A DNA stretch of 63,077 nt, filler included, from an uncultured Methanosarcinales archaeon (GTDB lineage Archaea; Nanobdellota; Nanobdellia; Woesearchaeales; B54-G15): NCBI GenBank assembly GCA_964519225.1. It is 18 parts of 18 records of this genome, joined end to end, with 100 filler letters (N's around TTAATTAATTAA, not from the genome) between each part and the next. Parts side by side here need not be neighbours in the genome. Positions count along the whole stretch, not along the records: positions 12,759 to 18,661 come from CAZFJK010000034.1; positions 18,762 to 23,913 come from CAZFJK010000035.1; 16 more parts are not named here. One strand, written 5' to 3'. Position 1 is the first letter of the stretch. The number at the start of each line of letters is the position of its first letter. Of the stretch, positions 18,001-24,000 are shown piece by piece. Made by a program: the position numbers.

Positions 18001-21000
18001 CACCCCTTATAGGAATGAATAAAGAAGAGATTGTTGATCTCGCTAAAACAATTGGAACATACGAAATTTCTATAAGACCGTATCAGGATTGTTGTTCATT
18101 TATGATAGCAGAACATCCTGCAACGAAAATGCCGCTAAAACTCGCTGACGAGATAGAAAGGAATATAAAAGATAAAGGAGAGTTAATTTTAGATGCTGTT
18201 GAAAATGCTGAAGTCAAGGAATACAAAATATAAGCTTGCTGTGTTAGTGAGGCAAGACTTGAAATTACCAAAAGGAAAACTTGCTGTTCAAGTTGCTCAT
18301 GCTGCTGTTGAGGCTGCATTGAAATGCAATAAGAAAATTTTGAATGCATGGCGAAAGCAAGGCGGAAAGAAAGTCGTGCTGAAAGTTAGGGATATGAGGG
18401 AATTGATGTATTATAAAGAAAAGGCGAGAAAAAAACGGTTGAAGACTATTCTGATTAGTGATGCGGGTCTAACTGTTCTACCGAAGGGAACCATAACATG
18501 TTTAGCTATTGGACCTGCTGATGAGAAAAAGATTGATGAGGTTAGTGGTGAGTTAAAGCTTGTTTAAAGCCAAAATTTTTTAAATTTCTTTGTTAGCTTA
18601 ACGATAATGGGCCCATAGCTTAGCCTGGAAGAGCACCCGGCTCTTAACCGGGGGGTCGGGGNNNNNNNNNNNNNNNNNNNNNNNNNNNNNNNNNNNNNNN
18701 NNNNNTTAATTAATTAANNNNNNNNNNNNNNNNNNNNNNNNNNNNNNNNNNNNNNNNNNNNATCTTCCATCCAGGAACGCACGGCGTAAAAACCTGAATA
18801 TAAGCAGGACCTTTAAAATCCAAACCCTTCTTAACTTTAGCATACAAATCCTGCGGAAAACCAACGCTTGCAGTCGCGACATAGCAATTCCCATGCATAG
18901 CAACTATTAACGGCATTGGTTTTTTCCATCTCTCATCACCATGTTTTATCTTTCCTACTGGAGTTGTCGTTGTCCATGCATACTTCGGCGTTGCACCGCT
19001 TCTCTGTATTCCTGTATTTTCATAAGCTCCGTTATCATAACAAACATAACAAACATCATGGCCTCTTTCGATCATTCCGCTCAGTGCCTGAAAACCGATA
19101 TCAAAAGTTCCTCCATCGCCGGCTATAGCCAAAACCTTCTCTCGCCTTCCTTGCCTTTTTAAAGCTTCAGAAATACCGCTTGCAACCGCACCAGCATTTT
19201 CAAAAGCAACATGAATATAAGGCACCCTCCAGGCAGTAAGCGGATAAGGAGTACTAACAACCTCTATGCAACCGGTAGCATTCACAACAATAACATTTCT
19301 ACCCGCAGCTTTCAGAATATGCCTCATAGCAATGGCAGCTCCGCAACCTGCACATGCCCTATGTCCCGAAGCAAAGAGTTCTTCTTCAGGCAAGCCCTGT
19401 ATCATTTCAGCATCTCCTCCAAACAAAAATCATCATGACTACTTCCGCAAAAATCTACTCTTTTAGTTAACAACCTCCCGCACCCTTTACACCTAACAAC
19501 CTTATAATGAAACCCTTTTTCAAAATGCGATTCAATCTCAATCTCATCCGCATCTTCTAAACAGCTATTACAGTAAGTGCAAGCAATTCCTTTTCCATTT
19601 TGATGAACATCGCTTACCGCAAAATGCATTCTCATTTTAACCATACCTTCTTTTCAATTTCTTTTGCTTTTCGCATCACATCAAATACTTTCATTATATG
19701 CCTAGGTGTTATATCCCTTCCGCCCAAGCCGGCTATAAATGAATGAACAGGTAAACAACTCAGCGCTTTAATTTCATTCCAAAGCACGCCGCTACTGCCA
19801 TAAGAAACTGCCCTATCAATCACAGCAATAGCTTTTAGTCCTTCAAAAGCCTTTTTCAGTGCTTCCCTAGGCAAAGGCCTGAAACTCCTCAGCTTAATCA
19901 ACCCAACATCTTTTATCCCAGTTTGTTTCAGAACATGCTTTATCGTTCCGCAAACACCGCCCATAGCAATAATTGCATATTTTGCATTTTCCATGTTATA
20001 TGTTTCAATCAGTCCATAAAAATCCCGTTTAAAATGTCTCCTAAAGTTTCTTTCCTCAATACGCATCACGCCTAATGCTCTTTTCATAGCCTGTTCTTGT
20101 TGCTCTTTAAATTCCATAAAACTATCAGGATATCCTATCGGACCTATTGTAACAGGTTTTCTTGCATCAAGCTTGAATAAAGGCTTGTATTTTCCAACAT
20201 ATCTTCCAACCTTTTCAGTACTATCCAAATGCACCCCCTCATAAACATGAGACAAGCTAAATCCATCAACGCAAACCATAACAGGAAGCAAAACATCTTT
20301 GTTTTCAGCAATTCTATAAGCAAACAAGATAGAATCATAAGCTTCTTGAGCACTTTCACAATAAAGCTGAATCCAACCGCTGTCTCGTTCAGCAATGCTA
20401 TCGCTATGATCGCACCAAATATTTATCGGAGCACTCAAAGCCCTGTTTGCTATTGCCATCACAACAGGCAACCTTAAGCCGCTTGCAATAAACAAGACCT
20501 CATGCATTAAAGCTAAACCTTGTGATGCTGTTGCAGTAAAGACCCTGCTGCCAGCAGCACTTGCACCAACAGCAGCAGAAATTGCACTATGCTCTGATTC
20601 AACAGTAATCATCTCTGCTTTAAGCAAACCATCAGCAACAAAATCAGCAAGCCTTTCAGCTATATGCGTCTGTGGCGTAACAGGATAAATAGGAATAACG
20701 TCTGGCTTTGCAAGTCTGACAGCTTCAGCAATAGCATGGCTCGTTTCAATTACTTTCTCCATTCTTCTCCCTCACCATCTTAATCGCTTTAACAGGGCAG
20801 TGTCTTGCACAAATCCCACAACCTTTACAATAATCATAATCTATATCAGCACCATCCTTCTTCATCTTAATACAAGCATCAGGACAGTAAAGCCAACAAA
20901 GACCGCACTTTATGCATTTCTCTTTATCCACAATTGGCTTTAATGTTCTCCATTCGCCTGTCTTTGTTTCAGCGCTGCTTCCAGGCTTATCTATAACAGC

Positions 21001-24000
21001 TCCAGGCTTGAGCTTCATATTTTTTCCAGGCATTTTTCATAAGTTAGCTTAATCACCCTCTTATTCTTTTTTTTCATCTCCTCATTTCTAAAACGTTCAT
21101 CAACAGCTTTATACAGATTCTTTAATGAAACAAGTTTAGTATAAGCAGCAAACGCACCAAGCATAGCAGTATTGACAATATCTTTTCCAAATTCTCTGAG
21201 TGCAATCGAAGTAGCATCGATAAAGCAACTCTTCACACCTTTTACGCTAATACGCTGCTCTTTTCTCGCATTCACAAGTACAGCACCATTATGCTTTAAT
21301 CCAGAAAGCGTTCCCTTTACGCACAGCAAACCAGCATCCAACACAACTATATAATCAGGCTCATAAATCTGGCTCCTTATTAAAATCGGTTTCTTAGAAA
21401 TCCTTGTAAAAGACATCGAAGGAGCTCCTCTCCTTTCAACGCCAAACATCGGCATTGCCTGAACATAATAGCCATCATAAAAGGCACCTACAGCAAGCAG
21501 TTGAGCAAAAGTAACTGCTCCTTGTCCTCCCCTACCAACACATCTAATCTCAATCATATATACCCCTTTTTAGCATTGAGCTAAAAGCAAAAGAAAGAAG
21601 AAAAGAGGAAGATTTAAAAATTTTCCTTTTTCTATTTTCATATGCAAATATACAACACTCTAACACGAAAAAAAGAAGAACTAATTCCTCTGCAAAACAA
21701 TCTTTTCAGGATCTATTCCTGTGGACCGACTGTTTATGACTATGTCCATATCGGAAACCTTCGTGCTTTTGTCTGCGCAGACATCCTAAAGCGCTATCTA
21801 ATTTTTAAAGGCTACAAAGTTAAACACGTAATGAACATTACCGACGTAGACGATAAAACAATAAAAAAGGCAAATGGCGACAGGCAAAAACTAAAAGAAA
21901 TCACAGAATTTTATGCAAAAGCATTCTTCGAAGATTTAAAGGAAATGAACATCTTGCCAGCAGATGTTTATCCAAAAGCAACAGAGCATATAAAAGATAT
22001 GGTAAACGTAATAAAAACACTCATGGCAAAAGGTTATGCATACAAAGCAGAAGATGGCAGCATATATTTCTCTGTTGCAAAATTCAAAGACTACGGAAAA
22101 CTATCAAAGATAAAAATAGCAGAGCTGAAAGCAGGCGCAAGAGTGAGCCAAGACGAATATGCAAAGGAATCTGCTGCTGACTTCGCATTATGGAAGGCAT
22201 GGAAGGAAAGCGACGGCGATGTTTTTTGGGAAACAGAGCTCGGTAAAGGAAGACCTGGTTGGCATATTGAATGTAGCGTCATGTCAACTAAGTATTTAGG
22301 TCAGCCGTTTGATATACACACCGGTGGTGTTGATCTGATCTTCCCTCATCATGAAAACGAAATAGCCCAGTCAGAAGCATATGCTGATAAGGAATTCGTT
22401 CGCTACTGGATTCATAACGAATGGCTTTTCGTCGAAGGAAAAAAGATGAGCAAGTCTCTTGGAAACTTCTACACCCTTCGCGATCTAAAAGAAAGAGGAT
22501 ACTCAGGCCAGGAACTAAGGCTCGTTTTTCTCGAAACCCATTACAGACAGCAACTCGACTTTTCCTTAAAACAACTCGATGCTGCAAAATCAACACTTGA
22601 GCGAATAAAAGATTTTACATGGCGCATGAAAAACAACGACAAAGAGGAAGGAAAAGACCTTGCCCAGCCGAGAATCGACGCTTTCATGCGAGAATTCACA
22701 GCTGCGATGGATGATGACCTCGATACGCCAAAAGCATTGGCAGCGTTGCACAGCTTTATCCACGAAATAAACTTGCTCGACTTGAACAGAGAAGAATCCC
22801 AAAAAGTTTATTCTTTAATGAAACAACTCGAAAACATTCTCGGCTTAACATTTGAATTTGAACTTCTTCCGCTTACAGAAGAAGAGCTTGCCCTAATCAA
22901 AGAGCGCGAAAAAGCAAGAAAACAAAAAGACTGGCAAAAAGCAGACGCAATAAGAGAAGAGCTAAAAAAACGCGGCATAGAACTTTTCGACACAAAAGAA
23001 AGAACAAAATGGAGAAAGGTTAAGCAATAAGCTAAAATCTCTGCCCCATTCCATCGGCTAGATGAATAACATCTTCTAAAGAACTCAATCCAAGCGGATG
23101 AATTGCTTGTTTTTCTTCAGGAAATAATGACTCCATACGTGGCTTTCTATTCTTAGGTCTCTTCTTCAGGTGTAAATGCTCTACAATTCCAAGGTGAAGT
23201 TCAAACTTTTTTTCTAGAGAAAGTCCACGAACATAGCGTGCTATAGCAATTGGATCATAATGTTGTCCTATGCGTTCAAAATATACTTTGCGATGAAGTA
23301 TGTGCAAACCTAAAGCAACGTCCCCTGCTGCTTCAACAACGTCTGCAACTAGGTTAGGTGTTATGCCATATTGAGGTTCATCTTTTATAATCGGAAGTAA
23401 ATCAAGTTTATCCTCATGCTGTATATTCGGCATTCTTATATAAAAAATAACAGCGGATCTTAATGGAATCTTTTCCTTTTCACACCGAGTTAAAAACCCT
23501 TGGATTTCTTTTTCATTACAACCAATTCTTTTCAAAGAACCAACAGCAAAGCTTAGTTCATCCCTATTAAAATAACCATCATCATACTTGTCCACATCAT
23601 CATATAGAACATTTCCTCTTCCAGTCTCGTCTGCCCATAGAGGCATTCTATATGCTTCGCCCAGAACCATTTTGTCACCCCCTATATATTTTCTATATTC
23701 TATATAGAAGAAAGGCGTTGATTTTTAAAGATTTTGAAATTATTTTTCCCATACAATCTTACTAATATTATGACATGCCTTAAGATCCTTTTCTATTTCT
23801 CTAAAATTCTCAGCAATTTCAATTGTTTCAATCTGATCTTTCAAACTCATTCCAGCATCTTTTTTCTTTTTCCAAATCTTTTTATTTAACTCAATCAACT
23901 GATCTGTGCTAAANNNNNNNNNNNNNNNNNNNNNNNNNNNNNNNNNNNNNNNNNNNNTTAATTAATTAANNNNNNNNNNNNNNNNNNNNNNNNNNNNNNN

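Follow-up and report, generated by a model that had tools for sequence, protein, structure and literature searches.

Box C/D ribonucleoproteins are regarded as near-universal and as common to archaea and eukaryotes, and fibrillarin and Nop5 both belong to the GTDB archaeal marker set. In the same vein, two earlier studies place Nop1/fibrillarin in a group of four factors whose orthologues occur in more than 90% of archaeal taxa (PMC8481954) and list COG1889 and COG1498 in a set of 38 single-copy genes for gauging the completeness of archaeal genomes (PMC9258230). PMC2584109 describes the ribose methylation Um2552 as "quasi universally conserved" and attributes it, in Haloferax, to an RlmE homologue, and Nanoarchaeum equitans is presented in PMC5389701 as lacking RsmA/Dim1, an rRNA methyltransferase of all free-living organisms. 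Against this background, the canonical archaeal box C/D sRNP (fibrillarin, Nop5, L7Ae, and a C/D sRNA) is represented by all four parts in relatives of the order studied here, whereas the genome under study keeps L7Ae alone, having lost fibrillarin and Nop5 along with both conserved guides.

This genome (assembly GCA_964519225.1, hereafter G000) is that of a very small, Woesearchaeota-like archaeon, assembled from a metagenome into 53 contigs totalling 0.87 Mb, with a completeness of 97.04%. The window analyzed, 63,077 nucleotides long, consists of short contigs of G000 joined end to end; its positions 18762–23913 are contig C35 (CAZFJK010000035.1), the start of which (18762–23030) carries an operon for a pyruvate/2-oxoacid:ferredoxin oxidoreductase (POR) and the CysRS gene. 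Comparisons were made with G001, a genome of the same genus that is 81% complete, and with other genomes of the order, among which the closed genome G026, from outside this genus, served as reference for locus layout and as positive control.

The probable former site of the Nop5–fibrillarin operon

The features of the window considered here are the following:

18762..18763, no strand: start of C35, adjoining the end of contig C1 across a gap that Logan contigs tile collinearly with G001
18764..19426, minus strand: porB, TPP-binding beta subunit of the pyruvate/2-oxoacid:ferredoxin oxidoreductase, truncated by the contig start (PF02775, 76 bits)
19402..19644, minus strand: small Zn-ribbon-like ORF between porA and porB (PF17032, 21.5 bits, below the cut-off)
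19632..20762, minus strand: porA, alpha subunit (PF01855, 238 bits; PF17147, 87 bits)
20746..21033, minus strand: porD, 2x[4Fe-4S] delta subunit (PF00037 and PF14697)
21015..21557, minus strand: porG, gamma subunit (PF01558, 129 bits)
21642..23030, plus strand: CysRS, cysteinyl-tRNA synthetase (PF01406, 394 bits; 42% identity to the CysRS of G026)
37896..38173, plus strand: H/ACA guide RNA of the HgcG/Pab40 family, on contig C39 (Rfam RF00064, 91.8 bits, full-length model)

Domains of all four subunits (alpha, beta, gamma, and delta) lie in one operon of C35, which encodes a four-subunit pyruvate/2-oxoacid:ferredoxin oxidoreductase with a putative substrate; the full copy of porB in G001 is 303 aa long. 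In G026, the corresponding block reads SecF–SecD–AAK–Nop5–Fib–CysRS. Contig C1 of G000 ends with SecF–SecD–EamA–EamA–AAK, and both flanks of the block are retained in G000, with dcd and POR where G026 has Nop5–Fib. The order is contiguous in contig C10 of G001, which spans position 1 of C35 to the end of C1 and has between them 755 nt containing dcd and the remaining 3' part of porB, followed by AAK. That C1 and C35 are separated by a gap in G000 had been a reason for doubt, which is now addressed: public Logan contigs from runs holding C35 tile this gap in the order of G001; stretches left uncovered by Logan contigs in single runs were treated as holes and not counted as evidence.

The wider SecDF…CysRS frame is common to G000, G018, and G026, and CysRS directly follows fibrillarin in G026, G011, G022, G017, G014, and G002, but among 80 public CysRS loci, many of them from bacteria, no more than 6 have Nop5–Fib at a distance of 4 kb or less. 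The preliminary description had proposed AAK–Nop5–Fib–CysRS as the ancestral site, turned into AAK–dcd–POR–CysRS in this genus: the derived arrangement stands, being contiguous in G001, whereas the place of AAK in the ancestral one is limited to G026, the only genome in which AAK is documented directly adjoining Nop5.

Proteins and guide RNAs of the box C/D system

Neither fibrillarin (PF01269) nor the Nop5/Nop56/58 scaffold (PF01798) had a match in G000 at E ≤ 10. Across 41 genomes, PF01269 scored above the cut-off in 38, the exceptions being G000, G001, and G018, and PF01798 in 37, the exceptions being the same three and G003; both proteins are also absent from G001 and from family f18. Custom profiles, based on six fibrillarin and five Nop5 proteins of relatives within the order, were run with filters off on 17,863 ORFs, the six-frame set of G000 down to a length of 25 aa, and returned best E values of 0.1 for fibrillarin and 0.72 for Nop5, a background level matching the second-best matches in G026, where the true proteins reached 1.8e-123 and 1.7e-129, respectively. 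The earlier claim that this genome and the second one of its genus have neither protein is upheld, by Pfam for both genomes and by relatives' profiles as well for G000.

The H/ACA sRNP, on the other hand, is found in G000 with Cbf5 (TruB_N, 92.4 bits), Nop10 (71.7 bits), L7Ae (PF01248, C33:1526-1804, 95.4 bits), and a guide RNA (RF00064, E 1.8e-23, for a gathering score of 77), in agreement with the reported retention of the three proteins. Gar1 (PF04410) had no match in five genomes including the fibrillarin-bearing G026, with a model insensitive enough to exceed its cut-off in only two control archaea. As L7Ae is also a ribosomal protein, its persistence can be understood from its being needed elsewhere, in the H/ACA system and in the ribosome. 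A weak L7Ae-like match in a 366-aa ORF of G018 presumably reflects a putative Pelota/eRF1 protein, given the size of the ORF and the L7Ae-like fold of a Pelota/eRF1 domain.

On the RNA side, two conserved C/D guide RNAs were identified in the order. A strict C/D pattern gave 23 matches in 14 genomes and none in a backwards control, and the sRNAs of the relatives combine C, D', C', and D boxes with guides some 12 nt long and with stems at their ends. One guide is predicted to pair with the 23S A-loop, the N+5 rule designating U2552 (E. coli numbering) as target; the other would pair with the CCGGGGAUAAC stretch adjoining the peptidyl-transferase centre. An alignment of 21 A-loop sRNAs reveals covariation: 84% of cells are paired and 47 double changes are counted, against 19 in shuffles, none of the 500 shuffles reaching as high a value. 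The corresponding model, R2, matches in 34 of the 38 fibrillarin-bearing relatives (E ≤ 7.2e-11); since the other four (G003, G012, G014, and G034) have no match, the absence of this sRNA is by itself not decisive. Rfam was set aside as an absence test, because at gathering scores it misses the C/D sRNAs of the order even in G026. Two conserved Woesearchaeal C/D sRNA families undetected by Rfam are a further yield of the analysis.

The preliminary description had left C/D sRNAs unsearched; the searches have now been run, and none was found in G000 by pattern, models, nhmmer, or antisense elements. The strict pattern has no match in G000, and R2 none in G000, G001, G018, or G145. The best match of model R1 in G000 (E 0.0226) is a partial one within an ORF and lacks a C box, and nhmmer with filters off on the whole of G000 gave best E values of 0.08 and 1.3 for the two guides, against 7.6e-16 and 9.8e-13 in G026. 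The only match to the 9–10 nt antisense elements in G000 is the 23S gene itself. A relaxed box scan was discarded as being of low power (a single perfect match in G026, matches with two or three mismatches being mostly coding noise): it returned seven matches with two or three mismatches in G000, none canonical, and one in the reversed sequence. These searches cover known families and canonical boxes, and unfamiliar sRNAs with degenerate boxes could escape them. At the sites of the two guides, the spacers themselves have collapsed: the PAN and Trm5 genes overlap by 4 nt in G000, against a 104-nt sRNA-bearing spacer in G026, and uL3 and uL4 overlap at ATGA (4 nt), against an sRNA-bearing spacer of about 100 nt in G026. 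The uL3–uL4 site is not universal, being occupied in four of seven checkable sRNA-bearing loci, and this spacer is also short in the fibrillarin-bearing G005.

Candidate substitute methyltransferases and recurrence of the probable loss

No bona fide RlmE/FtsJ enzyme (PF01728) was found in G000, where the best score is 28 bits, against 138–195 bits for true RlmE in the order. Those weak FtsJ matches of G000 that were checked against Pfam proved to be generic methyltransferases and one m5C enzyme of the RsmB/F type, and the ones lying beside CysRS in G226 and G159 are RsmB/F m5C enzymes rather than fibrillarin relics. SpoU/TrmH (PF00588) and aTrm56 (PF01994) had no match at E ≤ 0.001 in G000 or G001; a SpoU enzyme is present in G018. 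With RlmE, SpoU, and Trm56 all lacking in G000, its A-loop U2552 probably either lacks methylation or receives it from an enzyme whose family is not recognised. G000 does encode several generic class-I methyltransferases with unassigned targets; proteins of this sort include one of 406 aa on C8, whose N-terminal domain is of the MTS type, and a Methyltransf_11 fragment on C52. In the fibrillarin-bearing G009, an open frame of matching size (407 aa) has a similarly weak FtsJ match, and this possible orthologue hints that the 406-aa protein is not specific to the lineages with the loss.

Beyond this genus, the loss is met again elsewhere in the order. Fibrillarin, Nop5, and the A-loop sRNA are all missing (hereafter, triple loss) in 26 of 401 genomes, which corresponds to at least four events on an EF-2 tree. 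RlmE is present in 11 of these 26 genomes (7/7 in f41, 3/3 in g113, and G108), and RlmE and the A-loop guide are mutually exclusive in the order, none of the 13 genomes with RlmE having the sRNA; neither is found in G000, G001, f18, and the fibrillarin-less f44 genomes. A two-gene tree of CysRS and ProRS was not used for counting losses: it separated G113 and G370, as well as G226 and the other members of f44, although taxonomy and EF-2 place each of these together, and CysRS has close bacterial relatives. In the order, eight genomes without fibrillarin and Nop5 still have the A-loop sRNA and four more have Nop5 at contig ends; missed assembly is the likely cause there. As fibrillarin and Nop5 are used as completeness markers, estimates for genomes with the loss are biased low. 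Our literature search found no published account of such a box C/D loss.

Competing explanations and comparison with known systems

We consider a genuine loss of the entire box C/D small ribonucleoprotein system in the genus of G000 very probable. Three unlinked components are gone from conserved, contiguous sites, in G001 and f18 as well, which fits abandonment rather than an assembly hole. Admittedly, G000 is in 53 contigs, the Nop5–Fib locus itself lies at a contig break, and missed assembly likely accounts for the 12 other genomes mentioned above; but that the genes sit in unassembled or unbinned parts of this nearly complete genome is highly improbable, as two of the three missing loci fall within contiguous contigs with overlapping flanking genes, the third is contiguous in G001 with its gap tiled by public contigs, and G145 and G018, the latter 98% complete and in about 10 contigs, show this triple absence too. 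It is just as hard to believe that both proteins persist, diverged beyond profile detection: DPANN proteins evolve fast, and ORFs of about 215 aa in this order do give weak fibrillarin-like matches, one of them in G018 at 21 bits, yet such weak methyltransferase matches are also seen in fibrillarin-bearing genomes, unfiltered profiles from relatives yield only background on six-frame ORFs, and the guide RNAs that such proteins require are missing as well.

Granted a true loss, an unrecognised protein-only methyltransferase may have taken over Um2552 and other ribose methylations. A protein-only route exists in the order, as the 11 triple-loss genomes with RlmE attest, the methyltransferases of G000 without assigned target (C8, C52) could be candidates, and G018 has a SpoU enzyme; we nonetheless hold such a replacement to be rather unlikely, as three ribose-methyltransferase families (FtsJ, SpoU, and Trm56) are all negative in G000 and a similar frame, possibly orthologous, occurs in the fibrillarin-bearing G009. 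A host enzyme modifying the rRNA, or an episymbiont tolerating unmodified ribosomes, would agree with a 0.87 Mb genome compatible with a dependent lifestyle and with the precedent of N. equitans without RsmA/Dim1 (PMC5389701); but this is speculative, as neither a host nor protein import is indicated by this analysis, and we deem it very improbable.

Under the preferred reading of a genuine loss, the Nop5–fibrillarin operon would have been removed from a conserved SecF–SecD–AAK–[Nop5–Fib]–CysRS block, dcd and the divergently oriented four-subunit POR operon would now occupy its former site, and both order-conserved guide-RNA genes would have been removed from their spacers. The proposal that guide-RNA-directed 2'-O-methylation was given up gains support from the absence of Nop5–Fib and of two guide genes at conserved sites, and, as far as can be judged from sequence, the rRNA positions targeted by the guides would no longer be methylated through this system. 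More tentatively, and at somewhat less than even confidence, the genus of G000, together with families f18 and f44, might have ribosomes without A-loop U2552 ribose methylation, and possibly no 2'-O-methylated RNA at all, the machinery having been dropped on at least four occasions and along two routes: substitution by RlmE in f41, g113, and G108, and plain abandonment in f1, f18, and f44. If this were true, this genus and families f18 and f44 would be the first known cellular lineages without this quasi-universal mark.

Natural lineages without both proteins and guides imply that the box C/D system is dispensable, and the coexistence of loss with RlmE, loss without it, and guide-keeping sisters offers a comparative setting for the role of ribose methylation in the peptidyl-transferase region. 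As regards known systems, the status of fibrillarin as a near-universal marker contrasts with an order in which both genes and the guide RNA are missing from 26 of the 401 sampled genomes. The protein-only RlmE/RrmJ route to Um2552, known from bacteria and haloarchaea, never occurs alongside the A-loop guide in this order, but G000, G001, f18, and the fibrillarin-less f44 genomes depart from it too, having neither. N. equitans, for its part, retains C/D sRNPs. It is likewise a reduced DPANN archaeon without an rRNA methyltransferase (PMC5389701), but its loss concerns a single protein-only enzyme, whereas that of G000 concerns a whole RNA-guided system, guides included.

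Fibrillarin and Nop5 across the order and at the CysRS locus

The preliminary description held that the genus of G000 (868,879 bases in 53 contigs, 97.04% complete, 1.57% contaminated) has lost both box C/D core proteins, fibrillarin (Fib) and the scaffold Nop5, and this observation is real. The Pfam Fibrillarin and Nop models give zero matches in G000 even at E ≤ 10, and both proteins are below cut-off in the second genome of the genus as well (G001, 81% complete). Among G000 and 40 relatives from its order, fibrillarin is above cut-off in 38/41, the others being G000, G001 and G018 of family f18 (98% complete, 21 bits only); Nop5 is found in 37/41, and not found in these three and in G003 (79% complete). 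With order-specific profiles, built from 6 fibrillarins and 5 Nop5 of relatives and searched unfiltered against all 17,863 six-frame ORFs (25 aa or longer), E values in G000 go no lower than 0.1 (Fib) and 0.72 (Nop5), versus 1.8e-123 and 1.7e-129 in the closed control genome G026, and no pseudogene remnants of either gene were detected among the G000 ORFs. On the near-ubiquity claimed for fibrillarin, PMC8481954 ranks it as one of four factors in over 90% of archaeal taxa, and PMC9258230 has COG1889 and COG1498 among single-copy completeness markers. A full-text literature search, which leaves most subscription journals outside, returned no published archaea without fibrillarin or Nop5; an earlier report is possible.

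The flagged stretch, 18762-23030 (C35 positions 1-4269), carries the following genes:

within 18762-23030, - strand: porB (truncated at the contig start), a short Zn-ribbon ORF, porA, porD and porG
21642-23030, + strand: cysteinyl-tRNA synthetase (CysRS)

In G026, SecF, SecD, AAK, Nop5, Fib and CysRS stand head to tail. The terminal genes of G000 contig C1 are SecF, SecD, two EamA half-transporters and AAK, and C35 starts within porB and extends to CysRS. G001 contig C10 matches both C35 (4975 to 1) and the C1 end at ~91.5% identity, and the 755 nt between the two matches encode the end of porB and a dCTP deaminase, the latter (dcd) being what had been placed in this gap before; the interval cannot house Nop5 and Fib because the pair spans ~1.4 kb in G026. 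Public-run contigs placed on the G001 locus (5273-6117, 5992-6481, and 6327-6506 joined to 6730-7598) cover the gap in the same order with 85-91% likeness; the pieces derive from a single study (two samples) and may include strain variants. C35 is itself present in the four public runs that supplied these contigs (0.96 to 0.69 of sampled words).

The suggested ancestral order, AAK-Nop5-Fib-CysRS, stands for G026, but AAK was found adjoining Nop5 in that genome alone, which limits any wider synteny claim. The distance from fibrillarin to CysRS is at most 0.7 kb in 6/13 Fib-bearing genomes with both coordinates (G002, G011, G014, G017, G022, G026) and at most 3.3 kb in a further two (G008, G023); Nop5-Fib lies within 4 kb of CysRS at 6/80 public CysRS loci (many bacterial), which also counts against the wider claim. 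In G018, SecF-SecD is followed by a differently built two-subunit oxidoreductase, three other genes and CysRS, with none of AAK, Nop5 and Fib between SecDF and CysRS. This enzyme, a 2-oxoacid:ferredoxin oxidoreductase (L011, contig C6 of G018, 4434-6802), consists of a fused alpha-beta plus a gamma subunit; because the architectures differ, it and the four-subunit POR of G000 are not one insertion.

The nearest public CysRS loci are titled 'Candidatus Woesearchaeota archaeon', and relatives of the G000 gene (21642-23030) at 48-55% identity occur in many bacterial metagenome-assembled genomes (loci L189-L268). Together with a CysRS+ProRS tree at odds with taxonomy and with EF-2, these bacterial relatives point to aaRS genes that may be prone to transfer. 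A 212-aa ORF without Pfam match (23032-23670, -) is convergent with CysRS. The 63,077-base window comprises the short contigs C31, C32 and C34-C49 of the metagenome-assembled G000, parted by N spacers; 100-N runs at 4022-4121 (in C31) and 27624-27723 (in C36) are read as scaffold gaps, and C34 ends in a tRNA-like 5' part (18603-18661), truncated by the contig end and unlisted by Rfam. The shortest contigs bear defence- or mobile-type genes (40776-42137, 55447-56805, 57483-59177, 59409-61121, 61716-63041), namely N6/N4 DNA methylase, Schlafen/AlbA_2 with HATPase_c_4, GmrSD, DDE transposase and Mrr_cat with a helicase C domain.

Box C/D guide RNAs and their genomic sites

The search for C/D sRNAs, a gap in the preliminary description, was run with a strict pattern, two RNA models (R1, R2) and nhmmer, and found no C/D sRNA in G000. 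The strict pattern (C box, 11-13 nt, D' box, 2-12 nt, C' box) has 23 matches in 14 genomes, every one among 38 Fib-bearing relatives, with zero in reversed sequence as a control and none in G000, G001 and G018. These matches are canonical double-guide sRNAs, of which two families are conserved. The D' guide of the first, GTTATYCCCGG, has its target, CCGGGRAUAAC, in 23S rRNA; that of the second, GTGAACACC, pairs with GGGUGUUCAC of the 23S A-loop, and the D guide of this A-loop sRNA, GGAAGTAACT, pairs with AGUUACUCC, just upstream of CCGGGGAUAAC. We take the D' target to be U2552, on the basis of the N+5 rule and of a manual alignment with the sequence of E. coli. In an alignment of 21 A-loop sRNAs, covariation marks a terminal stem and an internal one, a stem-loop set between D' and C'; the paired share of cells is 84% (17-55% in slid controls), double changes number 47 versus 19 in shuffles, and covariation is as high in 0/500 shuffles. 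Degenerate C and D boxes are frequent in this family, and Rfam at gathering scores sees neither conserved sRNA in G026, whose A-loop sRNA lies at L042:13021-13087 (- strand).

R2, the A-loop model, matches 34/38 Fib-bearing relatives at E ≤ 7.2e-11 (unmatched: G003, G012, G014, G034) and has no match in G000, G001, G018 and G145. R1, modelled on the first family plus relatives, gives in G000 just a 25-nt partial match (E 0.0226), which is placed inside an ORF and lacks a C box. Over the entire G000, nhmmer without filters reaches best E values of 0.08 and 1.3, versus 7.6e-16 and 9.8e-13 in G026. The 23S rRNA of G000 is complete and retains both target sequences, and antisense words occur there in the 23S gene only, those of G026 in the 23S gene and the sRNAs.

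In G026, the A-loop sRNA occupies a 104-nt spacer with convergent PAN ATPase and Trm5/TYW2 genes on either side, and the first-family sRNA a ~100-nt spacer between uL3 and uL4. The orthologous pairs PAN/Trm5 and uL3/uL4 are adjacent in G000 (contigs C3 and C15) with a 4-nt overlap in each: its guide sites are collapsed. This calls for caution, as the sRNA site is conserved at 4/7 checkable loci and a short uL3-uL4 spacer also exists in Fib-bearing G005, likewise in the loss genomes G018, G158 and G159. The order uL3-sRNA-uL4 is shared by G023, G034 and G015, and PAN adjoins the A-loop sRNA in G025 and lies within ~0.9 kb in G005; neither flanking gene is near the sRNA in L012, L015 and L021. 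The uL3-uL4 spacer of G108 measures ~75 nt, with no box motifs in it.

RNA-modification genes kept in G000

L7Ae (95 bits), Nop10 (72 bits) and Cbf5 (92 bits) are all found in G000, as previously stated, along with a guide RNA:

37896-38173 (contig C39), + strand: H/ACA guide RNA, HgcG/Pab40 family (Rfam RF00064, 91.8 bits, full-length)

At the 3' side this RNA overlaps with the end of a 399-aa ORF without Pfam match (38152-39351, -). The Gar1 model, which is insensitive, has no match in 5 genomes. ThiI (17070-18233) and an Elp3-like radical-SAM enzyme (34978-36615), both for tRNA modification, are retained, and the loss is therefore specific to box C/D rather than a general loss of RNA modification.

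As for substitutes, few genomes of the order have a true RlmE (FtsJ domain, 138-195 bits). The FtsJ search peaks at 28 bits in G000, where the matches were rejected as RlmE, the Pfam-checked ones being an RsmB/F m5C enzyme and generic methyltransferases. SpoU and Trm56 domains are found in neither G000 nor G001; a SpoU enzyme is present in G018.

The genus has lost its box C/D methylation proteins and conserved guides and kept the H/ACA system. With proteins and guides absent and the guide sites collapsed, the interpretation that guide-RNA-directed 2'-O-methylation was given up holds, the methylation state of G000 rRNA itself being inferred.

Recurrent loss and the distribution of RlmE

Fibrillarin occurs in 363/401 sampled genomes of the order (259/281 among high-quality ones), a tally including 12 unpublished genomes, all Fib-positive. 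Among the 38 Fib-less genomes, 34 are also without Nop5; in the remaining 4, Nop5 is located at a contig end or close to one. Eight of the 34 retain the A-loop sRNA (G063, G111, G128, G270, G289, G309, G314, G393) and are read as assembly misses; the remaining 26/34 lack all three.

Genomes without fibrillarin, Nop5 and A-loop sRNA
f1: 2
f18: 2
f41: 7 (two single-contig)
f44: 6 (G356 has just a 40-nt A-loop sRNA match, 20.6 bits)
g113: 3
singles: G108, G112, G122, G203, G313, G352

A quick single-gene EF-2 tree (29 rows; G195, with a short EF-2 piece only, omitted) recovers the taxonomic families. In it, f1, f18, f41 and G005, which bears Fib, fall together with good support (SH-aLRT 99), and the well-supported branches require a minimum of 4 state changes. 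In AU tests on groups chosen after the tree was seen, a single clade of all 14 loss rows is rejected (p 8.5e-51), and neither f1+f18+f41 (p 0.30) nor f1+f18 (p 0.24) is.

PMC7994747 calls A-loop modification, at U2552 and/or G2553, 'always present', and PMC2584109 calls Um2552 'quasi universally conserved'. All 26 triple-loss genomes were tested for RlmE, which is present in 11 (f41 7/7, g113 3/3 [the unpublished G113 and G370, and G399], and G108) and not found in 15, including f1, f18 and the six of f44. The genus of G000 shows no RlmE replacement, in contrast to three other lineages with the loss. Two of the 38 relatives with Fib have RlmE, G003 and G014, both without the A-loop sRNA. RlmE, a protein-only Um2552 enzyme, and the A-loop guide sRNA are mutually exclusive across these 38 relatives and the 26 triple-loss genomes (0/64 with both).
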